A stretch of 52,273 bases of DNA from Smithellaceae bacterium (GTDB lineage Bacteria > Desulfobacterota > Syntrophia > Syntrophales > Smithellaceae). This document shows positions 5,065-47,034 of the stretch, one piece after another. The number at the start of each line of letters is the position of its first letter. Position 1 is the stretch's first letter. The stretch spans positions 1 to 52,273 of the forward strand of contig JBEKMF010000002.1 in NCBI GenBank assembly GCA_050008655.1, in the 5' to 3' direction. The notes below the pieces were generated by a model. It did not search any database. It had not been told where the DNA came from and saw only the letters and a list, made by a program, of their open reading frames with translations. A program made the translations under genes and the position numbers.

Positions 5065-5485
5065 TCGAGCACCTCTATATTACCTGTTGGTTTGATCATG
5101 TTAAAAACTAACATTATTTAAGTGCTTTTTACAAGCCGAAGGATTTTGAAATATTTTTAAAGATCATGACTGATCAGAAACAAAGCCCCTCCTCGATTTT
5201 TTCGCGGCATCCCGTACCTTGGGAACGGCCATGTTTTCAAGACATTCACTGCGGCCGCTTCTGTGCATTTCCCATACGATTAAACATTTCTGCATTTGTG
5301 AAACTCCAATTTCCATAACGCAGTGCAGGGAAATTGGTAAGTTGAACAATCCCGCACAGCGGAGGGTATGATAGCAAGAAGCTTGTTGCGAAACTGATTT
5401 TCAAAGTTTGCCTTTGGTTTCATACCCGCGATTTTCTACCTAAAAAAAGCTTTTATTGAATAAAGAATACTTTTAGGGCGTCTGA

Positions 5486-9110: not shown

Positions 9111-9121
9111 AATTTAATTCC

Positions 9122-13439: not shown

Positions 13440-13486
13440 TTTTTAAATGTCTCCGAAAACGCCCTTTTTTTAATCACCACTGGAAT

Positions 13487-21884: not shown

Positions 21885-21917
21885 CCGACATCCTAAATAC
21901 ATAGGAATAATATATTC

Positions 21918-27301: not shown

Positions 27302-28396
27302 TCAGATAGGCACAAATTTTTTTATAGCATCCCTGAGTGCTGTGGCAGTAATGGATTTCATGCAGGAGTTCGTCTGACACCGGCTCTCAAAGCCCAAGTT
27401 GAGGCAAGGAGAACATTGCAGGCCACTTTGCAAAGAAATTGCATTTGCGTCGAGAGGACCCCATCGTTTGGCCGACGTAGGGCCATGTAAGACAATGAGG
27501 TTGCACCCTAGGGCGGAAGCTAAATGCATGATACCGGTATCTACACTGATTACCAGCATTGATGATTTCAGGAGTTCGGCGGTTTGTTTTAAATCAAGTG
27601 TTCCGGCAACAATATTAACGCCATTCCTGTTCGCTATTTGTTCTTTGATTTGCTCCGCTTTTTCACGATCAATTTTCGCGCCCGTAAGAAATACTTCATA
27701 ATGATGCACTGTTAATTGATCTATAATTTCTATCCAATTTGCATCAGGCCATTCTTTTAAATATGATCGAGACCCGCCGGGAAACATGTGAATGGTGATT
27801 CTGTTATCACTACTTTCCGGAATCTGCATGTTGATAGAAGGGAGATTATGGCAATCTAAACCTAGCTGTTTTAGCAGATTTTTGTAATTGTCTAATTCAT
27901 GCAGATGGGCGGAATGCTCTGTAGTTAAATCATATATGTAATGTCGGTACTGGCCTTTTGTCTTGAAGCCGACCTTAAAACGTGCATTAGAAAAACACGA
28001 CAACAGTGCATTGATCCTGGGCCAAGGGCCGAAATCAATCCAGAGATCATATTCACCCGATTCTTTTATGATATGAATACACTCCCAAGGTTTAGCCACC
28101 GGGAGTTTAATGATTCTATCGATTCCGGATGTCAGATGTGCTATTTCATAATTGTTGGAAGCGACAAAAAAAGTTAGCTGAACACATGGATAGACATTTT
28201 TGAAGTCTCTTACAACAGCGGACAGGAGGACAGTATCCCCTATTCCTGCGGTTTTCAAGAAAGCCACCTTTTTTATGCTCCCGGGAAGAGTTTTTCTTCT
28301 TTTTTTAAGCAAACCTAAAATAAAGATAATCGGAATGCCGACATACCTGTCCAAAAAGCGAAACCTGCTATTTCCTCTTTCACGATTATATTTCAT
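27302..28396 (-). CDS. Family 9 glycosyltransferase (heptosyltransferase-like)
   Basis: 364 aa. LKTAGIGDTVLLSAVVRDFK, DTGIMHLASALG, CSPCLNLGFESRCQTNSCMKSI (WaaF/WaaC-type pattern). Confidence 0.8.
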   Translation of the reverse strand: MKYNRERGNSRFRFLDRYVGIPIIFILGLLKKRRKTLPGSIKKVAFLKTAGIGDTVLLSAVVRDFKNVYPCVQLTFFVASNNYEIAHLTSGIDRIIKLPVAKPWECIHIIKESGEYDLWIDFGPWPRINALLSCFSNARFKVGFKTKGQYRHYIYDLTTEHSAHLHELDNYKNLLKQLGLDCHNLPSINMQIPESSDNRITIHMFPGGSRSYLKEWPDANWIEIIDQLTVHHYEVFLTGAKIDREKAEQIKEQIANRNGVNIVAGTLDLKQTAELLKSSMLVISVDTGIMHLASALGCNLIVLHGPTSAKRWGPLDANAISLQSGLQCSPCLNLGFESRCQTNSCMKSITATALRDAIKKFVPI

Positions 28397-28708
28397 GCTA
28401 GTGTTTCTTTACTCAATATAAAATATTTGCAAAATTCCTGCAGGAGCTACGTTCGAAATAAAGTGAACTAATTCCAATATTAGAACCAATAACGAAAACT
28501 TGAGGATTAGACTTTTCAAACAACATTCTTTTTTCCTTTCACGCCTCTTTTTCACGATGCGTTAAGACTGCTCGTGCCCTTCAGGGTAGCTGTGAGCATC
28601 CCATAGGTATTCGGTGCTCTGGTAGAGGGGATAGCCTATTTATGGATAGTTAACCATCTACATGGGAAATAAAGTCGAAGCAAAATAATTGTCGGTAAAT
28701 TATTCAGC

Positions 28709-30919
28709 CTAAATTAAAACAATATAGTAACCTGTTAAAACTACATAAACAGTAGATAATAAAGAAATAGCAGAAAAACAGACGATTAGTAAACAGAAGA
28801 AATTGTGTAGGATTATTTGCCTATTATTCTGTGCCAAAGAACCCGGCTGTGCCGTGCTTTTTCGGGTGATTTTAGCCGTTTTCTTTTTTTGTGGCGTAAA
28901 GATAATATTTAAATATGTCCAAACAGAAGTGTTATAGAAAAAAAGGAAAAACAGCGGCGCGTAAGGAATGAAGTATCGTCCTTGAACATCCAGTATGTCA
29001 TTTTGTCCGACCGGTGTCCAGGTCAAATAAAGACCAGTTTCGATGAATATAACTCCTGCAATAAATATGGATGTAGTAATTAGTTTATTAGTCCATCTAA
29101 TTTTAATATCGTTATTGGAGAGCAGAAACGCTGTGATAATTAATATCAATAAATAGAAATTGATCAGCCACTTTGGCAAGGGCTTATTCAACCAACCCAG
29201 GATACCGATAAAACTATCCAGATGAAAAGTCCTCTGGGAAATAAAAACTGAATTAAACAGAATTCCCATATATTGAATAGGATTATTCAGGATAAAGCGT
29301 TTCTGTTCAATGGAATTTATGCCTTCAGGGATCGTGTTTCGATCAGATCGATGGAAATTCTCAATAGGAGCTGGTGCTGGAGTTGAAAGTGCATCTCGAG
29401 ATAACGTAAAATTCATAGTTGGCTTTGTCGAGTTAGCAGTTTTTGGTTGAAAAAGCGGCTTGAGGGCTTCGATTTGAGTTGCCATAATAACAGTAATTAC
29501 TAAACTCATAAAGATAACGGTGTATTTTTTTAAAGACCCTATTCTGTATACGGGAATTAAAAGAAACATTCCTATTAATATGGCATAAATAGATCTGGTG
29601 GTTGCCACCAAAAAAGAGGCAGCAAATAAAATGACCAAATCCTTTGTGCTGATTTTCTTGGTTTGATCATAGGCAAATTGAAGGAACAGGGCGATCAGCA
29701 AAAAGGAGAGGCTGATAATCATTGCATCTTTGGACAAAGAAGCGCATAAATATAAAGTCATGGGCATGAGCCCCAGCAAAAAGAAAATCCATTTGAAAAA
29801 AGGCGTGCTCCGGATCGCGAAAAAAATAATCACAATGGAAAATAACAGATTAAAAATCCTTCCCATATATAAAAGTATTACCGGTGAACAGTTAAACGTT
29901 TTTCCAATTAACATTCCTAATGCCTGGGGGAAGTAAGGGAAAATAAAACCACGAGCAAGTATTGCTGATCTGGCTTGGGGATTTAATTCTACCTCTCTCT
30001 GAGAAAGGATTTCATTAATATTTGTTTTTTCCAAGGGATTGAAATTCAATCTTCCAAAGGTATCAAACAATTTTATAAGCGAAGCAGGAACGGTAGAATC
30101 AAATTGAAAAATGTTGAATTCCGCAAGCTGATATGCCCTGCTCAGATGGTCGTGTTCATCAGGGATCTGAAGAGGTGGTGTGATAAATACCAATGACAAT
30201 CCGAAAACCAATGCCAAAACAACATAAATTCTCTCGGGAACAAAGATCAATCGAGCGACGAATGACTGGAATTTTTCTGCAAACACTATGAGCAAAGTCA
30301 GAATTGAGGCCAAAAAGAAGAGAAAAATTTTAAACCAATTTACAGAACTAAAATTAGATTCATATGTCCGCATACACAAACTGCCTTCTAAAAGGAAAGC
30401 TCGCCCAGAACTTTTTAAGGTTCCGATCACATCTTCATTGACAACTTGCCTCACCAAAAGTTTTCCTAATTTCCCTGTCGGTATCCTCGGTACCGCCAGA
30501 TGGTTATCTTTGTTGCCGGTTTCGGTGGATAAACAGAGGATTACTTTCTTTCCCTTTCCCACATGGATCTTTTCAGGAAATTTAAAGAGCTTATATTGGA
30601 GTCTATCCAAATTTTCGTTGGTGAAGCGCTGGACATAGAGGGTCTTATAATTGTCATCTAGTAACATAAGTGTATTTTCATTCCGGTATTGTACATCAGA
30701 AGAAACCACGGCCAACTCCACGGCTGTCAGATATCTCTTTGTCATCGTAAATTCATGAATAACCAAAAACTCTTTTGTCAAAGCTCCTAATTCAAAGTCT
30801 TCTTTTAATTCATCCTCCTGGGTCGGAAAAAATAAAACGGTCAGATTTGAAGAATAAATAATTACTCCGGAAAGAATCAAAAATATAAATCCGATGATTA
30901 GGTATTTACTTTTCTTCAC
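28709..30919 (-). CDS. Large polytopic membrane protein, DUF2142-like (putative GT-C-type glycosyltransferase)
   Basis: 736 aa. TM1 plus a ~190-aa extracytoplasmic domain, then PPLQIPDEHDHLSRAYQLAE (PDE..H..RA motif as recalled for DUF2142), followed by many TM segments. AT-rich. Confidence 0.6.
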   Translation of the reverse strand: MKKSKYLIIGFIFLILSGVIIYSSNLTVLFFPTQEDELKEDFELGALTKEFLVIHEFTMTKRYLTAVELAVVSSDVQYRNENTLMLLDDNYKTLYVQRFTNENLDRLQYKLFKFPEKIHVGKGKKVILCLSTETGNKDNHLAVPRIPTGKLGKLLVRQVVNEDVIGTLKSSGRAFLLEGSLCMRTYESNFSSVNWFKIFLFFLASILTLLIVFAEKFQSFVARLIFVPERIYVVLALVFGLSLVFITPPLQIPDEHDHLSRAYQLAEFNIFQFDSTVPASLIKLFDTFGRLNFNPLEKTNINEILSQREVELNPQARSAILARGFIFPYFPQALGMLIGKTFNCSPVILLYMGRIFNLLFSIVIIFFAIRSTPFFKWIFFLLGLMPMTLYLCASLSKDAMIISLSFLLIALFLQFAYDQTKKISTKDLVILFAASFLVATTRSIYAILIGMFLLIPVYRIGSLKKYTVIFMSLVITVIMATQIEALKPLFQPKTANSTKPTMNFTLSRDALSTPAPAPIENFHRSDRNTIPEGINSIEQKRFILNNPIQYMGILFNSVFISQRTFHLDSFIGILGWLNKPLPKWLINFYLLILIITAFLLSNNDIKIRWTNKLITTSIFIAGVIFIETGLYLTWTPVGQNDILDVQGRYFIPYAPLFFLFFYNTSVWTYLNIIFTPQKKKTAKITRKSTAQPGSLAQNNRQIILHNFFCLLIVCFSAISLLSTVYVVLTGYYIVLI

Positions 30920-30983
30920 GGTATGCTATTACTCTTTTCCATGTTATCTTTTAAAATTTAAAAACTTAAATGCTATAAAGAAA

Positions 30984-32060
30984 TCAAAGTTTATCAAATA
31001 CAAAATTATTTAACATTATTTCTACGGCATCTTGAACTTTGGCAACGGATAAATTGTCGAGGCAATCACTTCGGCCACTGCCGCTGCAACCCTTTTTATG
31101 ACAGGGTGAACAATCCATGTCCGGTATAACGACCTTGTTTTTTTCTCCCGGCGGCGCCCATTCACGCCAGTCGGACGGGCCATAAATAGTCAAAGTCGGG
31201 GTACCCACAGCCGCCGCTATTTGCGGGGCCGCGCTGTCAACGCCGATATGCAGGCGGCTCATTTGCAGGAGAGCCGCGAGCTCCCTGAGGGTGGATTTGC
31301 CGGCCATATTATAAACGGGAAAGTTCATTGCAGATGAAAACGCATCAGCCTTTTTTCTTTCTTCTTCGGAGCCTGTGATTAGAGACGGGATTTTATATTT
31401 TCCCCAAACGAAGGATATAAGATGTTTCCACTTATTAATGTCCCATTCCTTATAAGGCCAGCGCGAAAAAGGGTTGATCGTTATAAATCTTCGGCTGGTG
31501 TCTATTTTTTCTGCGGAAAGTATTTCTAAAACGTTATCTCTAATTGTTTGTGAAACAAATATTTTGGGGATAGCGTTTTTTTCTTTTATTCCGAATCCCC
31601 GGAGAATTTTTAGCGATTGTTCCGCCGCGCCGTAAACCCTTTCCTTTTGCCGCAGCGGATCAACTAGGTGCGTAAACACTCTATTGCGCCATTTCCATCC
31701 CGGATAGTAAAGAGCCGCCCTTATTTTGGATCGGGCCAAAAAAGTTATAATTGTTCCACGGTCATCGGCACGAAAATCAAAAGTCAAATCGAATTTTTCT
31801 CTGCGCAATTTTATTAATAACCAAAGGTTCGTTAACATACCCTCTTTGCCAGTTTGAAACACCTTGTCGATATGATGATCATCCAAAAGAAGATCACCGT
31901 ATGGTTTTCTGGTTAAGACTGTTAGTGCGGCATGCGGATAAATGGTTTTAACTGCTTGGAACGCGGGAATTGCCCATACAACATCACCTATATCGCCTAA
32001 TTGGATAATCAATATCTTTTTTATTGGAATATTTATTTTATGCTGAGCGGAAATTAACAT
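30984..32060 (-). CDS. Family 9 glycosyltransferase (heptosyltransferase-like)
   Basis: 358 aa. ILIIQLGDIGDVVWAIPAFQAVK, GVDSAAPQIAAAVG, CSPCHKKGCSGSGRSDCLDNL. Confidence 0.8.
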   Translation of the reverse strand: MLISAQHKINIPIKKILIIQLGDIGDVVWAIPAFQAVKTIYPHAALTVLTRKPYGDLLLDDHHIDKVFQTGKEGMLTNLWLLIKLRREKFDLTFDFRADDRGTIITFLARSKIRAALYYPGWKWRNRVFTHLVDPLRQKERVYGAAEQSLKILRGFGIKEKNAIPKIFVSQTIRDNVLEILSAEKIDTSRRFITINPFSRWPYKEWDINKWKHLISFVWGKYKIPSLITGSEEERKKADAFSSAMNFPVYNMAGKSTLRELAALLQMSRLHIGVDSAAPQIAAAVGTPTLTIYGPSDWREWAPPGEKNKVVIPDMDCSPCHKKGCSGSGRSDCLDNLSVAKVQDAVEIMLNNFVFDKL

Positions 32061-32113: not shown

Positions 32114-34030
32114 TTATAGAACAGCTTCGTTTTCCTGCGGCGTATATTCGGGAACTATTTCTTTGAGTGTTTTCTTAATGGCACGGGCATCATGGCGGAG
32201 AGCGTCTTCCATCAGTTCATCAATTTTATTTCCCAGTATTTTTCGCGACTCCTGCAAAATATTTCCTTCACCGGGTTGATAATTTGATCGCAGTACCATT
32301 ATCTTTTCGTGCCCGGTAGGAAGAATATCTTCACCTACGGTAATAAGTTCCTCATATAATTTTTCCCCATCTCGTAAACCGGTAAAAATAATTTTTATAT
32401 CCACATCCGGTTCTTTCCCGGAAAGGCGGATTAAGTCGCGTGCCATATCAGCTATCTTGACCGGTGTTCCCATTCTTAAAATGAAGACTTCTCCGCCTTC
32501 ACCCATAGCACCGGCCTGTAAAATCATCTGTGCGGCTTCTGGAATGGTCATGAAATAGCGGTTTATTTCCGGATGAGTAACGGTCACGGGGCCTCCCTGT
32601 TCAATTTGCCGACGGAAAATCGGAATTACCGAACCGGACGAACCGACAACATTGCCAAACCTGACGGCCATTAAGCGCGTATCATTGCCTTGCACGGATT
32701 GCATGATCAATTCGGTAACCCGTTTGCTTGCCCCCATGACATTTGTGGGACGCACTGCTTTGTCGGTGGATACCAGAACAAAGCGCTCGACATGATGTTT
32801 AATTGAAATATCCATGGTAACACGGCTGCCGATGATGTTATTGAAAACCGCTTCCCAGGGATTCTTTTCCTGCATAGGCACATGTTTATAAGCGGCAGCG
32901 TGAAAAACAACCTGAAGTTTATATTTTTTAAAAATATCATTCATTAAATTTTTATCTTGCACATGCCCCAGTATTGCCTCGCATTTATGGAAATCTCTTT
33001 CATTTTGCAGTTCCATTTGAATATTGAAGAGATTCATTTCGCTAGCATCAAGCAAGATAAGGCAGCTGGGCCGATATTTTATCACCTGCCGGCACAACTC
33101 GGAACCAATCGAACCACCGCAACCGGTAATCAAAACACTCTTGCCGTCCAGATAGCCGCGAATACCCGTAGTATCTAATTGTACAGGCGGCCTTCCCAAC
33201 AGGTCTTCATAGCTTATATCGCGAAGTATTTTAATGCTTACCCGGCCGTCAATAAGTTCGCCTATTCCCGGCAATATTTTATAAGAAACATTACAATCCT
33301 TACAGGTTTCCACTATATTCCTGATCTGGTCTCCCTTTGCCGAAGGAATGGCAATAAGTATTTCCGTCACCCCTTCCTTCTCCAGAACAGATGTAATTAT
33401 TCCCAGATTTCCCAGCACGTGTACGCCATGGATCGACCTGCCCTTTTTTTGGGGATCTTCGTCAATGAAACCGATTACTTTATAATGCAATTGATTGTTT
33501 TCAAAAATTTCCCGCAAGATTTTTTCACCGGCAGCGCCAGCTCCGATAATCAGTACTTTCTTATAAGTAACTTTTGGGAAAAGTTCTTCTCTGATTCTTG
33601 GATTGGCATAACGGGCAAAGTAAGAACGAATAGCCATGAGTTTGCCGCCAATCAATAGAAAAGTCAAAGCACCGTCTACAATAAAAATGGCGCGGGAATA
33701 TCCTTTAAAACCACTCATATATAAAATTACAGCGAGGATTAATAAAGTGGATAATAAACATGCCCGCGCTAAAAGCCAGAAATCCCTGATACTGGTATAG
33801 CGCCACATTCCCCGATAAATGCCGGAAGATAAAAAAACAATAATCTTCAAAGGAACAATCCAGAGGAGAACTGTTTTTATTTGCTGAATGTAAATTGGGC
33901 TAAGTGAAAATTCAAAACGAAATAGGTAAGAGATAACAATAGATAACGCAAATATTAATACATCGCTGAAAATCATCAAATATATTTTGGGGTTTTTTAT
34001 TTGGAAATACATACTCATGTTAGTGAACAA
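32114..34030 (-). CDS. Membrane-anchored NDP-sugar (UDP-HexNAc) 4,6-dehydratase, CapD/PglF/WbpM family
   Basis: 638 aa. Four N-terminal TM segments, two Rossmann-like regions (IIGAGAAGEKI; ITGCGGSIGSEL), catalytic AAYKHVP. Confidence 0.9.
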   Translation of the reverse strand: MFTNMSMYFQIKNPKIYLMIFSDVLIFALSIVISYLFRFEFSLSPIYIQQIKTVLLWIVPLKIIVFLSSGIYRGMWRYTSIRDFWLLARACLLSTLLILAVILYMSGFKGYSRAIFIVDGALTFLLIGGKLMAIRSYFARYANPRIREELFPKVTYKKVLIIGAGAAGEKILREIFENNQLHYKVIGFIDEDPQKKGRSIHGVHVLGNLGIITSVLEKEGVTEILIAIPSAKGDQIRNIVETCKDCNVSYKILPGIGELIDGRVSIKILRDISYEDLLGRPPVQLDTTGIRGYLDGKSVLITGCGGSIGSELCRQVIKYRPSCLILLDASEMNLFNIQMELQNERDFHKCEAILGHVQDKNLMNDIFKKYKLQVVFHAAAYKHVPMQEKNPWEAVFNNIIGSRVTMDISIKHHVERFVLVSTDKAVRPTNVMGASKRVTELIMQSVQGNDTRLMAVRFGNVVGSSGSVIPIFRRQIEQGGPVTVTHPEINRYFMTIPEAAQMILQAGAMGEGGEVFILRMGTPVKIADMARDLIRLSGKEPDVDIKIIFTGLRDGEKLYEELITVGEDILPTGHEKIMVLRSNYQPGEGNILQESRKILGNKIDELMEDALRHDARAIKKTLKEIVPEYTPQENEAVL

Positions 34031-34172
34031 CGCCTTCCTTTGCGTTAACCATATCCATCATATTAGTTACGGATAGTGTCTGATAAACAAGAAACATCAT
34101 GACGGTATCACCCAGTTCTTCGGCAACCTGCAGTCTTTTTTCAGGCCGCGTGCCGATAGCGCCAAAAAAGTT

Positions 34173-35210
34173 TCAGATGACAAGTTTGTTCATCGTTGAT
34201 GGATGAACCAGAGTGTCAACTTTCCTCTGTTTCATGCATTGTTTTATTGCCTGCTCAATATTCGCATGTGTTTTATAATATTCTTTTTCTAAAACCGAAC
34301 TGGCAGGCGCAGGACAGTCAGGAAGCGTTACTCTTTGTATAGGTGCTTTCAGATATTCAAAGGCCTGTTCTGAAACGATGGCTGATATTTCCGCCGCCAG
34401 GCCACATGTTTTCCAGCCGACATCAGCAACAGCTAAACGTCCCGTTTTCTTAACTGAAGCCAATATCAGACCGCAATCAATGGGCTTTGCCGTCCGAAGA
34501 TCAATACACTCCACATCAATGCCTTCTTTTGCCAAATTACCAGCCGCTTTTAATGTCTCGCGCACCATTAATGAAATTGCGACAACTGTTACATCGGCAC
34601 CTTTTTTTCGAATAATACCCTTACCGATTTCCACTTCATAAACATCTTCCGGAACAATATCTTCATCATTATATAAAAAGCGATCATCGATATAAACTAC
34701 GGGATTTGGATCGCGAATTGCTGCAATCATTAGCCCCTTGGCATCATAAGGCGTGGCCGGCATCACCACCTTTAATCCCGGAACATGTGCAAACATGGCA
34801 TGTAAAGCTTGGGCGTGCTGCGCCGCCTGCTCGCCACCGCGATTGATAATACCCCAAATAACCACCGGCACAGATAATTTGCCGCCGTTCATATAGTACC
34901 AGTTAGCCGCCTGATTGATGATCGGATCAAAAGCATAAAGCATAAAATCCATGCGTGGATGAACAATAATCGGCTTCATACCCGCAAGAGCTGCTCCGAC
35001 AGCCGCACCAGTCATCGCATTTTCAGAAACGGGCGTATCAATAACTCGTAATTTCCCGAACCTGTCTAACAAGCCCTGCGCGGTATTGCCGACATACCAT
35101 GGGCTTTTCGTCCCTTGCCCCATTAGAAAAACTGAAGCGTCGGCGGCCATCATTTGATGAAACGCCTCGTTAATCGCCAGACTGTAGCGAAGTTTTCTAG
35201 CGGAAGACAT
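34173..35210 (-). CDS. TPP-dependent 2-oxoacid dehydrogenase/transketolase-like E1 component, beta subunit
   Basis: Start taken at ATG 35210 (MSSARKLRYSLAINEAFHQMM), a 14-nt overlap with the alpha subunit; the track ORF begins at 35273. Typical E1-beta features: VIDTPVSENAMTGAAVGAALAGMKPI, and IDLRTAKPID in the C-terminal domain. Confidence 0.85.
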   Translation of the reverse strand: MSSARKLRYSLAINEAFHQMMAADASVFLMGQGTKSPWYVGNTAQGLLDRFGKLRVIDTPVSENAMTGAAVGAALAGMKPIIVHPRMDFMLYAFDPIINQAANWYYMNGGKLSVPVVIWGIINRGGEQAAQHAQALHAMFAHVPGLKVVMPATPYDAKGLMIAAIRDPNPVVYIDDRFLYNDEDIVPEDVYEVEIGKGIIRKKGADVTVVAISLMVRETLKAAGNLAKEGIDVECIDLRTAKPIDCGLILASVKKTGRLAVADVGWKTCGLAAEISAIVSEQAFEYLKAPIQRVTLPDCPAPASSVLEKEYYKTHANIEQAIKQCMKQRKVDTLVHPSTMNKLVI

Positions 35211-36201
35211 TATTGAGCAAATCCTTTCGATCCGGGTATGGACTACTTTTGGCAAAAACATGCGCGGCAGCAACTTCGGTATCCACGTCCATTCTTATTT
35301 TGCGCAAAGTTTCCGCATCAAAATCGTAATGATTGAGCAGGCATTTTTCATAAGTTTTAACCGGATCCTTTTCACGCCATCTCTCAACTTCTTCGGGAGG
35401 ACGAATGTCGGTGCGCAGACCTTGAACGTTATCGTCCGGCCCCACGTGCCCCCGTAATCGATAGGTCAGGCATTCCAGAAAAAAAGGGCCGTCGCCCCGC
35501 CTGCATTTTTCGATAGCCTCTCTACCTGCCTCATAGACCGCCAGAACATCATTGCCATCTACCTCAGCATTCTTGATGCAGAAGGGATCCGCAATCGTAC
35601 GGATATTATTTTGCACACGACAATCACGTATTGGCATATGAGTGGCGTAAAAATTATTTTCGCAAATAAAAATGATGGGAAGTTTCATCAGTGCCGCAAA
35701 ATTTAAGGACTCGTAAAGCACACCTTCACCTGCCGCACCATCGCCGAAAAAGACAACTGTTACACGATCATCTTTTCTGATGGCACTTGCCAATGCGGTG
35801 CCAAGACCCAGCGAAATTGTGCCAGAAACAATTGGCGCTGAGCCCAACATACCATGTTCAGGATCAATGAGATGCATTGACCCACCTCTACCATGGGAGC
35901 ATCCAGATTCGCGGCCATAAATTTCCGCAATCATCGCGCGCATAGAACCGCCTTTGGCTAAAAAATGACCATGTGCGCGATGATTACTGAAGATGTAATC
36001 CCTTACGTTCAGTGAAGCGCCAATGCCCGCAGCTATCGCCTCTTCACCGGAATAAAGATGACATGGACAGAGAATCTCACGATTTAAGATCGGTTCAACC
36101 AAGCTTTCTTCACAAACTCTCATGCGCAGCATGCTTCTGTATAATGCTTCTAATAAATGATTTTGATAATTCACTAGTTTAACCTGGCCACTATTTTTCA
36201 T
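35197..36201 (-). CDS. TPP-dependent E1 component, alpha subunit
   Basis: TPP-binding motif GDGAAGEGVLYESLNFAALMKLPIIFICENNFYA (GDG...NN). The track start at 36225 is a TTG; the ATG at 36201 (MKNSGQVKLV) is an alternative. Overlaps the AKR stop. Confidence 0.85.
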   Translation of the reverse strand: MKNSGQVKLVNYQNHLLEALYRSMLRMRVCEESLVEPILNREILCPCHLYSGEEAIAAGIGASLNVRDYIFSNHRAHGHFLAKGGSMRAMIAEIYGRESGCSHGRGGSMHLIDPEHGMLGSAPIVSGTISLGLGTALASAIRKDDRVTVVFFGDGAAGEGVLYESLNFAALMKLPIIFICENNFYATHMPIRDCRVQNNIRTIADPFCIKNAEVDGNDVLAVYEAGREAIEKCRRGDGPFFLECLTYRLRGHVGPDDNVQGLRTDIRPPEEVERWREKDPVKTYEKCLLNHYDFDAETLRKIRMDVDTEVAAAHVFAKSSPYPDRKDLLNNVFR

Positions 36202-37135
36202 TGATACAAGAATCGATAATTTCAAGTTCTTCGTCTGTCAAACGCCAACCATTTGCACCTAAATTTTCCATTACCTGCATATCTGTTTTCGCGCCAAAAA
36301 GGGTACATGTAATATCAGAATAATCCAGCACCCATCTCAGCGCAAGTTGACTTACTTGATGACCCCTGTTTGCAGCCATCTGCTCAAGAAATTTTACGCG
36401 CTTGATATACTTCAAAAAAATGTCCCCCGTAAATGCTTGCATCCTGCTTCGGTGATCATCATCTGCAAACTTTGTATTTGGGGTAAATTTGCCGGTTAAT
36501 AATCCATCAGCAAGTGCGCCCCAAGCAACTAAGTTAATACTATTATTCCCACAAATCGTCAATAATTCGTTAATTGAATCCCGATCAAAAATGTTTAACC
36601 GCACCTGAATTGCTGCTACCTCTGCGACCTGCATTGCCTGTAACAATTGATCAGCAGAAAAATTTGCAACGCCTATTACCCCTATTTTACCTTCTTCACG
36701 CATACGATCAAGTGCGGCAATGCTATCCTGTATGGGCGTTATATTGTCTGGCTTATGTATATAGTAGAGAGGAATACAATCCAACTTCAAACGCCTTAAA
36801 CTGTTTTCTACAGCCAGCTTGAGATAGGAAGGTGATGTATCTGCCCAAACCTTGCCTACTTCATTCCACCTCACGCCGCCTTTGCTGGCAATGACAACTT
36901 TTTTACGAGACGCATTCAATGTATCAGCAAGCAATGCTTCAGATTTGCCTAGCCCATAAACATCTGCAGTATCATAAAATGTAATGCCATTATCTAGCGC
37001 ACACCTGATAGCGTGAATAGAATCAGCATCGTTAACTTTACCCCAGCCATGACCGCCTATTGCCCAGCAGCCCATACCTAGACGACTGATTTCATATCCA
37101 GTTTGCCCCAGATGTATTGTCTCCAAGGCACTCAT
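36191..37135 (-). CDS. Aldo/keto reductase family oxidoreductase
   Basis: Start at ATG 37135 (MSALETIHLGQTGYEISRLGMGCWAIGG) gives an ATGA overlap with the upstream gene. AKR features: DTADVYG, and Lys in VIASKGG. Confidence 0.85.
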   Translation of the reverse strand: MSALETIHLGQTGYEISRLGMGCWAIGGHGWGKVNDADSIHAIRCALDNGITFYDTADVYGLGKSEALLADTLNASRKKVVIASKGGVRWNEVGKVWADTSPSYLKLAVENSLRRLKLDCIPLYYIHKPDNITPIQDSIAALDRMREEGKIGVIGVANFSADQLLQAMQVAEVAAIQVRLNIFDRDSINELLTICGNNSINLVAWGALADGLLTGKFTPNTKFADDDHRSRMQAFTGDIFLKYIKRVKFLEQMAANRGHQVSQLALRWVLDYSDITCTLFGAKTDMQVMENLGANGWRLTDEELEIIDSCINEK

Positions 37136-37788
37136 CGAATCGCGGTCCTCTTCACAACCCGGCAAAGGGTCATCCAGAGAATGTTGAAATCAGATCCAAG
37201 CGACCATTCCTTCACATATTTGACTCTTAATTCAGTCTTGCGGGGCATGATTTTTTCACGAAAATACCTGTCGGGATCTATGTTGCCTACAAGGTCGTCA
37301 AGATTGGCAAACTCAATAGATGCATAATCAGTTATTCCGGGGCGCATGGAAAGAATAATTTTTTCTTCATTCTTATAAGTAGCTATATATTCCAGTACCT
37401 CCGGACGTGGGCCAACGAGACTCATGTCGCCCACTAATACATTCAAGAGCTGAGGAAGTTCATCGAGTTTGGTCCGACGAAGTAAAACGCCAATACGCGT
37501 CACACGATTGTCGTTAGTGCCGGTAGTTGGCCCACCGAGAGATTCGGCATCCTCAACCATTGTTCTGAATTTGAAGATCCGAAAAGGTTTTCCGAATAAC
37601 CCCGCGCGCACACCGCGGTAGAAAACCTTTCCTGGTGATGTTAATTTTACGACTACTGCAATCAAGATAAGTAAGGGTGCTAGGACGAATAGACCGGTCA
37701 TTGCACCGACTACATCCACCGCTCGCTTCAACAATATATGGATCCACCTGCAGGGGAAAGCGATCGGTGTTTCAGGCGATGTTTCCAT
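37132..37788 (-). CDS. Small monotopic polyprenyl-phosphate phosphoglycosyl transferase (PglC/WbaP C-terminal-domain family; pathway initiator)
   Basis: 218 aa. KRAVDVVGAMTGLFVLAPLLILIAVVVKLTSPG, FRIFKFRTM, DELPQLLNVLVGDMSLVGPRP. TAATG overlap with the upstream methyltransferase. Confidence 0.9.
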   Translation of the reverse strand: METSPETPIAFPCRWIHILLKRAVDVVGAMTGLFVLAPLLILIAVVVKLTSPGKVFYRGVRAGLFGKPFRIFKFRTMVEDAESLGGPTTGTNDNRVTRIGVLLRRTKLDELPQLLNVLVGDMSLVGPRPEVLEYIATYKNEEKIILSMRPGITDYASIEFANLDDLVGNIDPDRYFREKIMPRKTELRVKYVKEWSLGSDFNILWMTLCRVVKRTAIR

Positions 37789-38663
37789 TACGGTGCCTCA
37801 TGCTTCTCGAACCAGACACCTCCACGCCCATCAGGGCAAAGTGGAGCGGTGATATTACGCTCAGCCCGAAATTCGTCCAAGGCCTTACGAGAACCAAAGC
37901 AGGTTGCATAATCATCAATAATTATAAACCCTCCATGGCTAATTTGATCAAAGAAATTCTTCAGTGGTATCTTTGTAGATTCGTACCAATCACCATCTAA
38001 ACGCAACACGGCAATTGGCCCGATCCTCACACGATGAACAGGAACAGTCTCCTGGAACCAGCCCTTTACAAGATGAACCTCACTTTTAGGCAAATGTAAT
38101 TTATCGAACATCAAATCACTGACTTGCTCAATGGTTCCTAGACATGCCCCTTTTTGAAGTGGACGAATAAAATGGCCCGCCTTACCGCCTTCTTCGTAAT
38201 CTTCAGCAGTTGGCTCAGGTAGGCCTTCGTAGGAGTCAAAAAACCACTTCTGCCGTGTATTCGTTCCAAGTTCCCGATTTGTCAGAGCCATCATAGCGGC
38301 AGTACCCCCCTCGGCCACACCGCACTCAACCAAGGCTCCCCCGATTTTCTTTTGTTCGACAAGCGCAGTAACTTCAAATGCATTCTCGAGAGCCTTCCAT
38401 CCGCCCATGCTGTAGGGCAGTAACTGTCGCGTGAGTGATGTCTTTAGTTGCTGCTCCCGATCACCAAAGAGTCTTGCTTCGAGTACCCTCACTACATAAC
38501 TAGCTCTAAGAATCTGTTTGTAGCCCCTATAGAGTCCATCATAGATCACCTGGTATGCCTTTGGGGGAAGCATTGCTTGCAGCAAGGGTATGAGAATGCG
38601 TGCTAAGCGTCCAGCCAGAGAAGGCCGATATTCAATTTCCTGCTGTACTTTCTCGTCAATCAT
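37788..38663 (-). CDS. TylF/MycF-like SAM-dependent O-methyltransferase
   Basis: 291 aa. LVECGVAEGGTAAMMAL (motif I) and AVLRLDGDWYESTKIPLKNFFDQISHGGFIIIDDY (metal-binding D..D pattern of macrocin-O-methyltransferase-like enzymes). Confidence 0.8.
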   Translation of the reverse strand: MIDEKVQQEIEYRPSLAGRLARILIPLLQAMLPPKAYQVIYDGLYRGYKQILRASYVVRVLEARLFGDREQQLKTSLTRQLLPYSMGGWKALENAFEVTALVEQKKIGGALVECGVAEGGTAAMMALTNRELGTNTRQKWFFDSYEGLPEPTAEDYEEGGKAGHFIRPLQKGACLGTIEQVSDLMFDKLHLPKSEVHLVKGWFQETVPVHRVRIGPIAVLRLDGDWYESTKIPLKNFFDQISHGGFIIIDDYATCFGSRKALDEFRAERNITAPLCPDGRGGVWFEKHEAP

Positions 38664-38695: not shown

Positions 38696-40024
38696 TTACT
38701 TTTCCGAAAATGTGTCATGCCCTCCCCGGGCCATCTGCTCCAAGAACTTGATCAAGTGCGTGTAAACAACGATCCCATCAAATGATTCCTTGAATGTCGT
38801 CAATGCGTTAGCCTGGAGAATTTCCAAACGACTCGGGCTTCTTGCTAGGGACTCCAGTTCAGCAGCAAGCCTCTCCGACCGATTGTAATAGCTAAAGCCG
38901 CATTCCTGCCGCATCAGCAAGTCATGAAGTGCACCTTTGCTCAGACTGAGGGCAATGGCCAATCCGCCGGAAAGGTACTCCCCGGGTTTATTGGGAATAT
39001 TATTAATGTAGTTTACGGACTCAATATATGGCGCGATACCGATGTCGGCCAATTCCAGCAAGGCCTTTATCTGCTCGGCATTGACCCAGCCCGGGAAAAG
39101 GACGTTACTGAGCCCCCGTGCTTTTCTTTTGATTTCTGCTGCGCTTTCGCCAACGCCGCAAATAATAACTTTTACGGGTATCTGGCTACCCTCCAGGATT
39201 TTAGCTGCCTGAATCACTGGTAAAAGATCATTATTTTTGCCAAGCGCGCCAAAAAAAACCACAATGAGTTCGCTGTTATCGCAGCTTACACCCATTTTCC
39301 GCCAAAATCGTTTTCCTTCTTCTATTCGAACAGCAGGAATGTTATCCGCCAAGTATCCCATTGGGAAAACGCGATCACTATCAGTACGAAATCGTCCAGC
39401 GTGTGTAACGCCCCATTCCACAAAAGCATCAGTTAATCCAATTATTCCATCTGCGCCTGCACAGGCGTTCATAAGTTTTCGTTTCATTGGCGCTGAGAAA
39501 AGACGGACAGCTGGCCAAAAGGCCTTTGGCACTAAATCAAAAAATACATCAGGCCATAAGTCTCGTATATCAAGTAAAACGGGGATATTACGCTTTCGAG
39601 CATAATTAACCGCCTCCAGGCCTAGCTCCGCAGTTGGGATGGAAGCCAATATAACATCAGGACGCTCAGGATCTTTTTCCGCTAAATCCGAAAAGCGTCG
39701 GGCAACCAAGGCATTGTCCCTAATTCGCGACAGTGAAATATTTTTTGAATAGCCACAGCCGTGAAGATACTGGATTTCGTAACCAGCTTCAACGGGAAGA
39801 CGCTTATCTGTTTCGTAGCGGTGACATCGTTTATAGTGATCGAAAGTGGATGTCCACCAAAGCACGCGATGCCCCATTTTGGATAACATCTGTGCCAAGA
39901 TTCCCATGCGCAGGGGTCTTTCAGCACCATAATTATCGTGAGGCGTCGGCTCTGATCGCTGAATTAGCCACACTTTCATAAATGGATTCTTTGCGGGGAT
40001 ATACTGCACTCTACCAACTTTCAT
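38696..40024 (-). CDS. Family 4 (GT-B) glycosyltransferase, WbuB-like
   Basis: 442 aa ORF. The likely functional start may be the ATG at 39979 (MKVWLIQRSEPTPHD). Other features: MGHRVLWWTSTFDHYK, and a C-terminal GT-B half with NKPGEYLSGGLAIA. Confidence 0.8.
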   Translation of the reverse strand: MKVGRVQYIPAKNPFMKVWLIQRSEPTPHDNYGAERPLRMGILAQMLSKMGHRVLWWTSTFDHYKRCHRYETDKRLPVEAGYEIQYLHGCGYSKNISLSRIRDNALVARRFSDLAEKDPERPDVILASIPTAELGLEAVNYARKRNIPVLLDIRDLWPDVFFDLVPKAFWPAVRLFSAPMKRKLMNACAGADGIIGLTDAFVEWGVTHAGRFRTDSDRVFPMGYLADNIPAVRIEEGKRFWRKMGVSCDNSELIVVFFGALGKNNDLLPVIQAAKILEGSQIPVKVIICGVGESAAEIKRKARGLSNVLFPGWVNAEQIKALLELADIGIAPYIESVNYINNIPNKPGEYLSGGLAIALSLSKGALHDLLMRQECGFSYYNRSERLAAELESLARSPSRLEILQANALTTFKESFDGIVVYTHLIKFLEQMARGGHDTFSEK

Positions 40025-40130: not shown

Positions 40131-41660
40131 TTAGTTTCTGTCTGCCAGTTTGATTTTCAATAATTGCCCCCAAAGCCAGTCCCGCGTTACCGGTGTGATA
40201 ATGGCTGTTATTCCTAGCGTTAATACAGAAATTATCGACAAATAAATCAGCAACGTAAATTGCGCCATTGAGGAACTGATAAATAATTTCCCGGAAGAGG
40301 CAATAACTAAAGCCACAGCAAGCGGGATCAATACATCCTGCCAATACCAGCGCCATTTTTCTTTATTTAGCAAGCGGCGATGCATTAATGGAACTTCAAA
40401 AAGCACATAACCTACGTTTAAAATTAGCCAGACACTTGCCGCCCCGGTGGCACCATAGTTGGCTGTCATGTAAACTATCGACGTAACAAACAGCACAACG
40501 GCCACCAAATTACTAAAAAAAAATAATCTGGTCCAGCCAAATGACAATTGCAGCGCATGGGGAAGATACATAAGGGCATTAAGGGCAGTCCCGCAAATGA
40601 GAATGCTCACAAGCAAGTGCGATTTCTCAGCTGTTATCGGATTTTGTGTCCAGAGTAAAATGATTTCATAAGAATACAGGGCAACAACAATGGAAGCAGG
40701 TAAAATCAAAACAGCCATAAACTGGCAGCCTTTATGATAAAGCTGTTTTAACCCTTCCTGTGCGTTGAGAGAAACCAATTGGGTGAATCGGGGATAAATA
40801 CTGGCGAACAGCGACACGCTCACACGCAATGGGCTCAAGGCAATTATACTGGCCAGCGCGTAATAACCAAACATCTCCAAAGATAGCATTTTGCTTAATA
40901 TGATTTTATCCACTTGAGTAAGAATTATTCCGAGGATAGTGGTGCCGCCAATCCCGGCGGCAAACCGGCCGATACCTTTCAGCAGCTGCTTTTGAAAAAC
41001 AGGCCTGTTTTCACTTTTCGGCAGCTTACGCCAAAAAAAAGTCACTAAAAGAAATGTATGTGTTGCGCTGATAATAATCTGCCATAAAAAAAATGCCTGA
41101 ATCGTGGGAGAAATCAGCCATAAAACCGCAACAGCGCCAACGCCGCGTAAAGTACTTATACTAATATTAACCGCATTTAATATAATCTGGCGTTGGAGCC
41201 CGGTAAGCCCGCCTGCGTAGAAACTAATTGGCCATTGCAGCATCAATGTAAATCCCATTATTAAAACTGCTTGTTCAATAGTTGAGGATGATAATTGCTC
41301 TGCCCTGACCCAATGATGAGCAATAAAAGGCGATGCTGTTATGACCACAATTCCGATAACCAATGCTATACACCAGTAAATAATTTCCAGCGAACGGACC
41401 AGATTGCGTATTTCCTGTTCCTTTTCCGGCAGCACAGAAAGCCGCGCCATTTCACGGTTCAATGTACCGCTGAACCCCATATCGAGAAGTCCGGTCATCA
41501 CTTGGAGCATGGCAAAAAAACCTATTAGCCCATAGGATTCTATCCCCAGAAATTTTATATAAAGGGGTACGAACACGAGTCCCATGAGGGCCATCCAAGC
41601 ATTTCCTAATAAAGTTGCGCTAATATTTTGCTTGAGCAAGTTCATACGGCCCGTATTCAA
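40131..41660 (-). CDS. MOP-superfamily oligosaccharide/polysaccharide flippase (Wzx-like), second copy
   Basis: 509 aa, about 14 TM segments. LLKQNISATLLGNAWMALMGLVFVPLYIKFLGIESYG is typical of Polysacc_synt flippases. Confidence 0.8.
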   Translation of the reverse strand: MNTGRMNLLKQNISATLLGNAWMALMGLVFVPLYIKFLGIESYGLIGFFAMLQVMTGLLDMGFSGTLNREMARLSVLPEKEQEIRNLVRSLEIIYWCIALVIGIVVITASPFIAHHWVRAEQLSSSTIEQAVLIMGFTLMLQWPISFYAGGLTGLQRQIILNAVNISISTLRGVGAVAVLWLISPTIQAFFLWQIIISATHTFLLVTFFWRKLPKSENRPVFQKQLLKGIGRFAAGIGGTTILGIILTQVDKIILSKMLSLEMFGYYALASIIALSPLRVSVSLFASIYPRFTQLVSLNAQEGLKQLYHKGCQFMAVLILPASIVVALYSYEIILLWTQNPITAEKSHLLVSILICGTALNALMYLPHALQLSFGWTRLFFFSNLVAVVLFVTSIVYMTANYGATGAASVWLILNVGYVLFEVPLMHRRLLNKEKWRWYWQDVLIPLAVALVIASSGKLFISSSMAQFTLLIYLSIISVLTLGITAIITPVTRDWLWGQLLKIKLADRN

Positions 41661-44712: not shown

Positions 44713-47034
44713 TTACAGTGCTTTTTTATCACGATACCAAACACTTAATTTACCATCTTTTTCAACGATAGCGGAGTCTGGAAGTTTCCAGAAAGGATTC
44801 CATTTTAAGCGATCTTCCAAGGAGTAGTCAGAACGAATCAACACCCTATCTTTATCCCTCCTGATAATTAAATTTCCATTTAGTGCTATTTTCCCAATAT
44901 CGGTCATTAAAGTAACCTTGGGTTTAATTCTGCCCGATATTATTCCCGAATTTAAAATACTATCAGCGAGTTCAATCGTCTCATCCAACGAAGTACGAAG
45001 CCAATCAATTCCGCCAATAGGCACACAATGAAAAAGATAGTGGTTTTCGATATTCAGCGATCGAAGAGAGTCGTATAAATTTATTAAATCCATAACGGAA
45101 TCATTAATACCTTTTAACAAAACGGTTTGGTTATAAATTGTAGAAACGCAGGAACCTATTCTCTGGTATGCTTCGCGTACCTCGGGAAATAATTCTAAAG
45201 AATGATTTATCTGAGTTGCCATTTCTACACGAAAAGAATATTTCTTTTTTAAAACAGAAAGAATATTATCATTTACCCAATCCGGCTGATGAACAGGCAG
45301 GCGACTGGCTATTCTAACTACTTCTATGAAAGGTGAATGGCTGTTTAATTCATCAAGTAAATGCGATAGCTTTTTGGGCACTAGGAATGGGTCACCACCT
45401 GTAATTAATATTTCTCTAACATCGCTGGCTAATTCCGATTGTCCTAAAAATCTGGCTATTCTGCTTAAATCATCATTTGTCAAAATAAAAGGTTCATAAT
45501 TTCTTCGCAAACAATGTCTACAGTGAGCAACGCACATTAAGGTAATATCAACCAAAATTTGTCTTTTATATAAGCGTTCAACACCAAATAATTTTTTATC
45601 TTCAAAAACAAATTCTGCAGAAGCATCATAGTGTTTCGTTGCTTCATTTTCAGATATTTCTGTTTCATTCTTATTAAATATAAATTGCGTTGTAAGAACT
45701 TTAAGAATGTCTTCTCTGTTTTCGGTTCTGGCTTTATTAATCTGTTTTTGTAAAAAGGGCGATATTCTTTCATTATATCGCTTGTACTTTTCCCTTTTGA
45801 CCGAAGTATTACCGGTATCATTTTTTGGAAGAACATATATATGAATATAATCCTCAACATGATGCCACTTTTCTTGCATTTCTTTGTGACTATCAAACTC
45901 TAAGAACACCACACCTAAGGCATAATCACCTCTGGTAAATGGTTTTACTTCAGTCTCAAATTCAACAAAATTGATACTTTTCATAATATTGTTTACAATT
46001 TCCAGAGAATAATGAATTCCTGTATACTGCCCCTCTTCCGACGCGTTTAAAATATAAGTCATAACCGATTTAGGATTTGCTACATGCAATTGTTGAACAG
46101 GGTATTCGATACCTAAAGCACAATAAACTGCGGCTTCTGTCAAATCTACTCCAGTTGACATTTTAATTAAATCAGGAACGTAATTACCTCCATTGCGTAG
46201 CCCAATATCCAAAATAACAACTTTTCCGTTTACAAACAAAGCATCAAAATTCATACAACCAGTAACTAAATTAAAAGTTGTAATAATCTTTTGTAATTGA
46301 TCATCCAATTGGCCTATAACTTCTTTTCCAAAAAAACCGGGCATAATTTCGCCAATAGGTACTTTCAATTTACTGCCTTTTAAAAAATAATTGTGTCCAT
46401 AATGTCCAAATGCGAGTTTACCGTTTTGTATCAAAATATCCCCATCAAGTTCAAGCATATCGCTCTTTAATAATTCTTCACAAACCACCACACCACACCG
46501 ACTGTATTTTTTTGCATCGACGATTGCTCTTTGTATTTGAAGTGAAGACGAAACAATTGTCTGACCTTTTGAACCACTGGAATCTGAAGCTTTTACCAAA
46601 ATTGGATAATTTAAATCTATTTCTTTAAATTTATCATCAGACTCAATAATAACGAAGTTGGGATAAGGAAGACCAACTTGTTTTTGAAACTTTCGAAACT
46701 CATGCTTTAGTTGGAGAATTTTAGCTGAATTATACGGATTACCGGGCAAATTTAATTTTTCTGCAATATATGAAACGCCCGGCGACGAAACATCTGATCC
46801 ATAGGTCATAACTCCATCTATGTTATATTTCTTTGCAACTTCTATAAGACTGTCTAAGTCGGTTGTAGAAACATTTTCACTAAAGTCCCCAACAAAGTGC
46901 CCAATATTCGAAGGCACATTATCTGTAACAATTACCTGAACATCCAATTGTTGTGCCGTTTTAATAGCGGGTAATTGAAACTGTGTTGCCCCCAAAAACA
47001 ATATTTTTTTGGTATTAAATAAATTATTGCACAT
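44713..47034 (-). CDS. Fusion protein: N-terminal ATP-grasp ligase domain + C-terminal KamA-family (2,3-aminomutase-like) radical SAM domain
   Basis: 773 aa in a single uninterrupted frame. N-terminal half: KKILFLGATQFQLPAIKTAQQL, YPILVKASDSSGSKG, VVCEELL, ILDIGLRNGG (ATP-grasp layout). C-terminal half: LMCVAHCRHCLRRN (CX3CX2C followed by RR, as in lysine 2,3-aminomutase relatives), ILITGGDPF, NQTVLLKGIND, HYLFHC, and a Lys in TDIGKIAL where KamA enzymes have the PLP lysine. Confidence 0.85.
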   Translation of the reverse strand: MCNNLFNTKKILFLGATQFQLPAIKTAQQLDVQVIVTDNVPSNIGHFVGDFSENVSTTDLDSLIEVAKKYNIDGVMTYGSDVSSPGVSYIAEKLNLPGNPYNSAKILQLKHEFRKFQKQVGLPYPNFVIIESDDKFKEIDLNYPILVKASDSSGSKGQTIVSSSLQIQRAIVDAKKYSRCGVVVCEELLKSDMLELDGDILIQNGKLAFGHYGHNYFLKGSKLKVPIGEIMPGFFGKEVIGQLDDQLQKIITTFNLVTGCMNFDALFVNGKVVILDIGLRNGGNYVPDLIKMSTGVDLTEAAVYCALGIEYPVQQLHVANPKSVMTYILNASEEGQYTGIHYSLEIVNNIMKSINFVEFETEVKPFTRGDYALGVVFLEFDSHKEMQEKWHHVEDYIHIYVLPKNDTGNTSVKREKYKRYNERISPFLQKQINKARTENREDILKVLTTQFIFNKNETEISENEATKHYDASAEFVFEDKKLFGVERLYKRQILVDITLMCVAHCRHCLRRNYEPFILTNDDLSRIARFLGQSELASDVREILITGGDPFLVPKKLSHLLDELNSHSPFIEVVRIASRLPVHQPDWVNDNILSVLKKKYSFRVEMATQINHSLELFPEVREAYQRIGSCVSTIYNQTVLLKGINDSVMDLINLYDSLRSLNIENHYLFHCVPIGGIDWLRTSLDETIELADSILNSGIISGRIKPKVTLMTDIGKIALNGNLIIRRDKDRVLIRSDYSLEDRLKWNPFWKLPDSAIVEKDGKLSVWYRDKKAL

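Follow-up and report, generated by a model that had tools for sequence, protein, structure and literature searches.

Sugar branching by two-subunit, E1α/β-type thiamine pyrophosphate (TPP)-dependent enzymes has so far been described from antibiotic clusters, mainly those of actinomycetes (PMC4753412, PMC12247030). A 2025 review unites these enzymes under the class name αKADH2 and describes them only from secondary-metabolite clusters; they are apparently specialised for two-carbon branches derived from pyruvate, KbDH-α/β has been assayed in vitro, and the branch's ketone is afterwards either reduced or, as in kibdelomycin, transaminated (PMC12247030). In the paulomycin pathway of Streptomyces paulus the E1-like pair Pau11/Pau12, homologous to AviB1/B2, is credited with an acetyl branch, which is reduced on the glycosylated antibiotic by Pau7, an aldo-keto reductase (AKR) of the AKR5I group (PMC4753412). 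In contrast, the branched sugars of lipopolysaccharides (LPS) are attributed to single-chain YerE-like enzymes (PMC4753412). Here we describe a gene cassette from a Smithellaceae bacterium (contig JBEKMF010000002.1 of assembly GCA_050008655.1, positions 1-52,273), in which an E1α/β pair is lodged among the genes for a predicted UDP-GlcNAc 4,6-dehydratase and an initiating sugar-phosphate transferase. The whole stretch of 52,273 nucleotides, henceforth the window, constitutes a single 52-kb glycan locus with all its genes on the minus strand. Taken together, synteny, phylogeny and motifs, along with the analogy to the αKADH2 enzymes, make it rather probable that the cassette makes and installs the branched sugar with which the repeat unit of a surface polysaccharide begins.

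The cassette begins with a gene for a glycosyltransferase of the GT4 family (38696-40024, minus strand, as for all window features below; Pfam Glycos_transf_1/Glyco_transf_4), followed by those for a TylF-family S-adenosylmethionine (SAM)-dependent O-methyltransferase (37788-38663; Pfam TylF, 2e-45), a small PglC-like polyprenyl-phosphate glycosyl-1-phosphate transferase (PGT) of the initiating type (37132-37788; 218 aa; Bac_transf, 9e-58), an AKR (36191-37135; Aldo_ket_red, 1e-65), the TPP-dependent E1α subunit (35197-36201; E1_dh, 3e-70), the E1β subunit (34173-35210; Transket_pyr and Transketolase_C) and a predicted membrane-anchored UDP-GlcNAc 4,6-dehydratase of the PglF/CapD/WbpM type, here termed PglF (32114-34030; CoA_binding_3 and Polysacc_synt_2, 6e-116). 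Start and stop codons overlap along most of this run: the stop of the methyltransferase lies on the start of the PGT (1 nt), and the PGT/AKR, AKR/E1α and E1α/E1β junctions overlap by 4 nt (ATGA), 11 nt and 14 nt respectively, with a gap of 142 nt between E1β and PglF. Judging from these overlaps, the genes from the methyltransferase through E1β are predicted to be translationally coupled. A GTG at 36174 is a possible alternative to the ATG at 36201 as the start of E1α and would give a product of 325 aa, like those of its homologs. A promoter and terminator scan returned signals at chance level and was thus uninformative. All five open reading frames (ORFs) from the PGT to PglF were recovered on the minus strand at the coordinates that an earlier, sequence-only reading had assigned to them, with Pfam assignments bearing out their identities, and an independent public annotation of an identical metagenome contig (JGI 3300038429) lists these genes too, at equal lengths.

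Each of the enzymes retains the catalytic signatures of its family. E1α has an intact TPP-binding motif, as the sequence-only reading had noted, of the form GDG-X27-NN (31 aa, aa 153-183, located at 35653-35745 by a regular expression run on the translation), and a His252 whose counterpart in the alignment to human E1α is the catalytic His263; E1β keeps Glu63 and His132, and the two together have the E1_dh plus Transket_pyr/Transketolase_C build of 2-oxoacid dehydrogenase E1 enzymes. The tetrad of the AKR is intact (D55/Y60/K85/H127), placing it within the aldo-keto reductase superfamily. The PGT has the Asp-Glu dyad at positions 109-110, within a DELPQ motif (aa 109-113), and consists of the approximately 200-residue Bac_transf domain alone, which is the small monotopic, PglC-like type. 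PglF displays GCGGSIG (aa 303-309) and STDKA (aa 421-425) motifs in the PglF/CapD/WbpM architecture and does not reach the equivalog cutoffs of PseB and FnlA. Pfam and family profile assignments identified neither an aminotransferase nor an acetyltransferase in the window, in agreement with the sequence-only reading. That reading had further proposed a WecE-like remnant elsewhere in the window, which we failed to detect: three DegT probes in tblastn, at E-values up to 50, found no match better than E = 0.33, and queries with the 808 ORFs that flank the cassette in related loci likewise returned nothing DegT-like.

The E1 pair shares with the E1αβ of pyruvate dehydrogenase (PDH) and with AcoA/AcoB of acetoin dehydrogenase the fold, the TPP motif and the catalytic Glu and His. 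This raises the alternative of an ordinary E1 belonging to a pyruvate or acetoin dehydrogenase, which is merely located in a glycan locus and has its E2 and E3 partners encoded elsewhere. In line with such a proposal, human PDH E1 is the nearest solved structure of both subunits (1.7e-52 for E1α and 4.6e-65 for E1β), and E1β, at 331 bits, comes out above the cutoff of 321 bits of the subfamily-level 'PDH E1 β' model NF006667. However, E1α falls below the PDH equivalog cutoffs (312 bits against 394 for TIGR03182), and the reading frames of the pair overlap each other and the AKR within the AKR/PGT gene run. Neither the E2 motif (DHRxxDG) nor the redox-disulfide motif of E3 was found in the 52-kb window, upholding the earlier claim that E2/E3 are missing from it, and neither occurs within ±8 kb of any locus of the PGT-linked clade defined below; as a positive control, the identical scan picks up both motifs directly beside distant E1 pairs.

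The phylogenetic placement of the pair points in the same direction. In a neighbour-joining tree of concatenated E1α and E1β from 120 non-redundant loci, the window pair belongs to a monophyletic clade: all of its informative members have a small PGT, and in Desulfobacterota, Nitrospirota, Planctomycetota, Omnitrophota, lineages of the candidate phyla radiation (CPR) and an archaeon it occurs exclusively alongside PGT and sugar genes. The E2/E3-linked E1 pairs form a monophyletic clade of their own, apart from the PGT-linked one, so that the outcome which the sequence-only reading had named as contrary to its proposal, a clustering with normal dehydrogenase E1, is not what the tree displays. 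At positions that human PDH E1 has in common with the E2-linked E1 of bacteria, the sugar-context E1 proteins share derived residues: in the α subunit F61→P, Y89→H and S264-M265-S266→V-G-P, the latter directly after the catalytic His, and in the β subunit F80→H, T82→R, N84→D and E173→R. These substitutions, some of which adjoin the catalytic His and Glu and alter the loop that follows the His, suggest a remodelled acceptor site. Thus, with its position apart from the E2-linked clade, an E1α below the PDH cutoffs and an E1β barely above its own, the pair differs from what is normal for the E1 of PDH or acetoin dehydrogenase, and we regard the conventional role as very improbable. Metagenomes contain thousands of close relatives of the E1α, which come from Desulfobacterota, Bacteroidales and further groups.

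The association of the AKR with the E1 pair is strongly conserved. Homologs of the AKR and of E1α were found on contigs of matching lengths. In all seven AKR homolog contexts that were looked up (55-95% AKR identity) the order GT4–methyltransferase–PGT–AKR–E1α–E1β, in some cases continuing into PglF, recurs with the same overlapping junctions, and two of the carriers are cultured organisms, Geomonas paludis (GCA_014193585.1) and Trichlorobacter ammonificans (OW150024.1). The GT4 gene stands at the start of the cassette in L086-L089 and L170-L172 (locus numbers of the related contexts) and likewise in the variants with a DegT aminotransferase described below. Immediately upstream of the PGT the relatives always have a methyltransferase, which is either of class I or, as in L087, L172 and L173, of the TylF type. 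PglF follows E1β in the window and in L001, L006, L086, L088, L170 and L171. As this arrangement recurs in many independent lineages, it is far beyond what chance would produce. In G. paludis, T. ammonificans and L171 the cassette is followed by genes for capsule export or chain length (Wzi; Wzz and Wza), which argues that it is the module that initiates a surface polysaccharide. Within the set of species-representative genomes the AKR was seen only in L006, a 95%-identical twin from a metagenome-assembled genome labelled "uncultured delta proteobacterium"; the notion drawn from that set, that the AKR is peculiar to this lineage, was dropped after the AKR homolog search and the context look-ups. 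Mobile elements disrupt the cassette in L172, where an HNH endonuclease gene (9199-9972) lies between AKR and E1α and a DDE transposase gene (12183-14012) after E1β.

Most relatives in the species-representative set belong to a sister variant, PGT–E1α–E1β–DegT(–PglF), in which a DegT aminotransferase, present in 18 sister loci, takes the place of the AKR. The DegT proteins keep the catalytic Lys, in the form SFYPAK or SFYPFK, and this rules out their acting as a ColD/E1-type 3-dehydratase of a yersiniose-like 3-deoxy route. The two variants interleave within the PGT-linked clade of the E1α+β tree, and their E1αβ are 60-90% identical to each other. The closest DegT relative, L001, is 89% identical to the window in E1α, 95% in E1β and 86% in PglF but only 43% in the PGT, and DNA homology between the two ends exactly at the 5' end of E1α. 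The same holds more generally: across 27 loci, identity to the window PGT is 67-84% in those with the AKR only and 41-57% in those with DegT only, with no overlap (Mann-Whitney p = 3×10⁻⁵), whereas the E1α identities of the two types overlap freely. The constancy of E1αβ and PglF, set against a PGT that switches with the AKR or DegT, implies that E1αβ acts on the shared product of PglF, and the tracking of AKR/DegT status by the PGT implies that the final sugar, as recognised by the PGT, is determined by whichever of AKR and DegT is present. The simplest reading is that PGT, GT4 and methyltransferase are matched to this final sugar, with PglF and E1αβ making a common intermediate. Both an AKR and a pyridoxal phosphate-dependent aminotransferase need a carbonyl; if E1αβ uses up the C-4 ketone, a single new carbonyl is left, that of an acetyl branch.

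These considerations allow a pathway to be proposed. PglF, going by its family and motifs, would convert UDP-GlcNAc to UDP-2-acetamido-2,6-dideoxy-hexos-4-ulose. E1αβ, probably as a heterotetramer working independently of an E2, would decarboxylate pyruvate on TPP with release of CO2, and the hydroxyethylidene-TPP carbanion could then add to the C-4 ketone, on the model of AviB1/B2, Pau11/12, AlmDI/DII and KbDH-α/β, to give a sugar that bears a 4-C-acetyl group and, at C-4, a tertiary alcohol. The AKR, using NAD(P)H, may reduce the side-chain ketone to a 4-C-(1-hydroxyethyl) branch in the manner of Pau7; in the sister variant DegT might turn the same ketone into a 1-aminoethyl group, by analogy with kibdelomycin. 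The PGT would pass the sugar-1-phosphate to undecaprenyl phosphate, GT4 would extend the lipid-linked branched sugar, probably by adding a second sugar, and the TylF methyltransferase would O-methylate a hydroxyl. Two-carbon branching was also what the sequence-only reading had arrived at from the gene content, and it gains support from the synteny, including the AKR-E1αβ link in 7/7 contexts, the phylogeny and the motifs.

The order of events could nevertheless be different. The AKR or DegT might act first, at C-4 of the PglF product, to yield UDP-N-acetylquinovosamine or UDP-N-acetylfucosamine, or in the DegT variants a 4-amino sugar of the bacillosamine or AAT type, with E1αβ doing something else to that sugar, for example attaching an acyl or hydroxyethyl group of two carbons and so standing in for a PglD-type acetyltransferase. 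E1αβ indeed holds the place of PglD in the PglF-PglE-PglD-PglC series in the DegT variants, with no Hexapep acetyltransferase seen nearby, and the best NCBIfam matches of DegT are C-4 aminotransferases. One locus, moreover, combines AKR and DegT (L095, see below). Such a scheme would require E1αβ to accept a 4-hydroxyl in one variant and a 4-amino group in the other, although its constancy (60-90%) leads one to expect a single common substrate. Furthermore, hydroxyethyl-TPP can pass on an acyl group only with the help of an oxidant, for instance lipoamide, FAD or an Fe-S cluster, and no such oxidant is encoded here; nor did we find a precedent for an E1-type enzyme that acylates sugars at N or O. 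To our knowledge, the known UDP-4-keto-6-deoxy-HexNAc (N-acetylhexosamine) 4-reductases are short-chain dehydrogenases/reductases (SDRs) and not AKRs, which also speaks against action at C-4 first. On balance we consider this order of events unlikely, though it is the alternative to which we give the greatest weight.

A second group of alternatives retains C-branching and changes its details: the donor might be a 2-oxoacid other than pyruvate, or the branch might be placed at a position other than C-4 following ketoisomerisation, resulting in a longer or differently placed branch. A class I/II aminotransferase of the aspartate/methionine type is encoded after DegT in L003 (13279-14457) and also occurs in the DegT loci L014, L020, L097 and L110, and it could generate a 2-oxoacid donor for the E1 pair from an amino acid. 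The αKADH2 enzymes, too, branch C-3 or C-4 depending on the pathway; however, they seem specialised for two-carbon branches from pyruvate (PMC12247030). The window itself has neither a ketoisomerase nor a class I aminotransferase, and for its cassette we judge a different donor or position to be a distinctly minor prospect.

Several points weigh against the proposed 4-C-branching, beginning with the nature of the AKR. This protein scores below every NCBIfam equivalog cutoff, and its closest solved structures are 3n2t (1e-61), YhdN (1e-57), IolS (2e-51) and perakine reductase; short 2,5-diketogluconate reductases of the AKR5 type match it over about 200 residues alone (approximately 1e-30). It is thus AKR11/13-like and, judged by the solved AKR5-type relatives, lies outside the AKR5I group of Pau7, given the nomenclature rule of >40% identity to AKR5 members (cited in PMC4753412). 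By sequence, then, the AKR does not appear to be an ortholog of Pau7, and if the two have the same function the reductase must have been recruited independently; alternatively, the AKR may reduce the ketone at C-4. The similarity of DegT to PseC, WecE and other C-4 aminotransferases among its best NCBIfam matches, all of them at sub-threshold scores, would suit a plain 4-amino sugar equally well. Strict exclusivity of AKR and DegT is ruled out by L095 (= L094, metagenome contig Ga0209211_10014138), which has the order SDR-SDR-methyltransferase-PGT-AKR-E1α-E1β-DegT with a PGT of the DegT-variant type (53%) and a divergent AKR (47%), and which a simple either/or model leaves unexplained. Orphan E1 pairs, in addition, can serve non-sugar roles, as indicated by a pair on the Streptomyces griseofuscus plasmid pSGRIFU1. 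Finally, we know of no report of a 2-acetamido-4-C-(1-hydroxyethyl) sugar. Literature searches for an E1 pair within an O-antigen or capsule locus and for Geobacter or Geomonas glycan structures with a branched sugar returned nothing relevant.

The S. griseofuscus pair just mentioned (L174, pSGRIFU1 137096-139142) is an E2-less E1αβ encoded next to genes for a condensation-domain protein, an acyl carrier protein and a phosphopantetheinyl transferase, among γ-butyrolactone regulators. It was ruled out as a reference for sugar-branching E1 on account of the condensation domain and carrier protein in its context, and tblastn matches on Streptomyces and Embleya plasmids were discarded for the same purpose due to an E2 motif downstream.

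The αKADH2 enzymes AviB1/B2, AlmDI/DII and KbDH-α/β are among the closest known systems. As with the pair under consideration, they are two-subunit TPP-dependent E1 enzymes without E2/E3, for which pyruvate as a two-carbon donor and a keto-sugar as acceptor would be common features under our proposal, and the reduction or transamination of their branch mirrors the AKR and DegT variants. The gene content to be expected of such enzymes, an E2-less pair beside an NDP-sugar 4,6-dehydratase with an adjacent reductase or aminotransferase, is what is found here; this likeness is one of gene content, and the setting differs, being a secondary-metabolite cluster in their case and a cell-envelope glycan locus in ours. 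The paulomycin system offers a specific parallel, with an E2-less E1α/β proposed to form the C-4 acetyl branch and an AKR subsequently producing the 1-hydroxyethyl group; it differs in belonging to an actinomycete antibiotic pathway, whereas here the scaffold would be a PglF-derived UDP-6-deoxy-HexNAc whose product is handed to a PglC-like PGT, and in the AKR5I affiliation of its reductase.

The YerE/YerF and ErwE/ErwF systems of yersiniose and erwiniose are reminiscent of the proposed pathway in a different manner, namely in TPP-dependent acyl addition to a 4-keto-6-deoxy nucleotide sugar, NAD(P)H-dependent reduction of the branch and occurrence in Gram-negative LPS. YerE-type enzymes, however, are single-chain members of the acetohydroxyacid-synthase-like decarboxylase superfamily acting on CDP-3,6-dideoxy-4-keto sugars, in contrast to an E1α/β pair predicted to use a UDP-HexNAc derivative; the window enzyme is a two-subunit E1 and displays merely a marginal TPP_enzyme_C overlap (4e-5). 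Hence, of the precedents put forward in the sequence-only reading, the E1-type one (the AviB1/B2, or αKADH2, class, to which Pau11/12 with Pau7 can now be added) fits more closely and YerE/YerF less so. The bacillosamine pathway of Campylobacter and Neisseria (PglF-PglE-PglD-PglC) is bracketed by the same families of dehydratase and small PGT, and the sister variant adds a DegT to this resemblance; the window differs from it in being devoid of PglD and in having E1αβ and the AKR between the PGT and the dehydratase. That C-4 branching of a 6-deoxy-HexNAc occurs in LPS is illustrated by shewanellose, a 2-acetamido-2,6-dideoxy-4-C-branched galactose. Since the branched sugars of LPS have been credited to single-chain YerE-like enzymes, an E1-type enzyme on a PglF/PglC scaffold represents a new setting.

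Beyond the PGT-linked clade, the E1 tree contains several further E2-less clades whose genes lie beside those for GDP-mannose-dehydratase-type SDRs, the GmhA/HldE/GHMP heptose-activation enzymes, DegT, methyltransferases and radical-SAM enzymes, an example being L176 on plasmid pDMC1 of Solidesulfovibrio magneticus. Other E2-less E1αβ loci in GDP-sugar or heptose-type pathways are L038 (Leptospira), L068 and L083 (Legionellaceae) and L036, L045 and L065 (Chlamydiae-like). Thus, E1-type enzymes appear to be widespread in envelope-glycan loci. We tentatively entertain, at somewhat less than even odds, the wider proposal that C-branching of the E1αβ, or αKADH2, type is a widespread and unrecognised route to envelope glycans instead of a speciality of actinomycete antibiotics. 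It would entail a new family of 4-C-(1-hydroxyethyl)- and 4-C-(1-aminoethyl)-6-deoxy-HexNAc initiating sugars in Desulfobacterota, Nitrospirota, Planctomycetota, Omnitrophota, CPR and some archaea, with related pairs in Leptospira, Legionellaceae and Chlamydiae branching sugars of the GDP or heptose type. Should the cassette work as proposed, it would bring the formation of C–C bonds by E1-type enzymes to surface glycans and their UDP-HexNAc/PglF/PglC scaffold, predict monosaccharides that chemistry has yet to describe, account for hundreds of "pyruvate dehydrogenase E1" annotations in polysaccharide loci of uncultured phyla and provide a new pool of tertiary-alcohol-forming carboligases for biocatalysis. 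As the cassette is present in the cultured G. paludis and T. ammonificans, the idea is directly testable.

The remainder of the window contains several other features of interest. Directly downstream of PglF is a trio of genes, GT9–DUF2142–GT9 (27302-32060), the central one encoding a 736-aa membrane protein; the trio is kept in L001 and L006 and not in the other carriers of the cassette. Upstream of the cassette, a gene at 44713-47034 codes for a protein of 773 aa that joins an ATP-grasp domain at its N-terminus to a C-terminal radical-SAM aminomutase of the KamA family (lysine/glutamate 2,3-aminomutase-like), which, being within a glycan locus, suggests decoration of the polysaccharide with a β-amino acid. 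Two regions (5486-11835 and 20940-22886) encode a CysN/CysC fusion, CysD, a sulfate-type ABC transporter (periplasmic binding protein, two permeases and ATPase) and two tandem sulfotransferases, and from these the locus appears to make its own 3'-phosphoadenosine-5'-phosphosulfate (PAPS) and a sulfated glycan. The presence of Wzm/Wzt, with a carbohydrate-binding Wzt_C domain, together with two separate Wzx-like flippases (1817-5064, 14636-16114 and 40131-41660) indicates that more than one glycan assembly route is encoded side by side in the window. The first 1.8 kb (1-1817) is of low GC content, has ORFs of at most 91 aa and gave a single weak protein match at 1232-1582, and a 30-aa fragment resembling the C-terminus of a GT9 protein lies between Wzm and CysNC (5170-5259); both are probably debris of rearrangements. 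A radical-SAM/SPASM protein is encoded at 19822-20943, between the sulfotransferases and a GT4 gene, and many of the related loci likewise have B12-binding or SPASM radical-SAM genes next to E1αβ.

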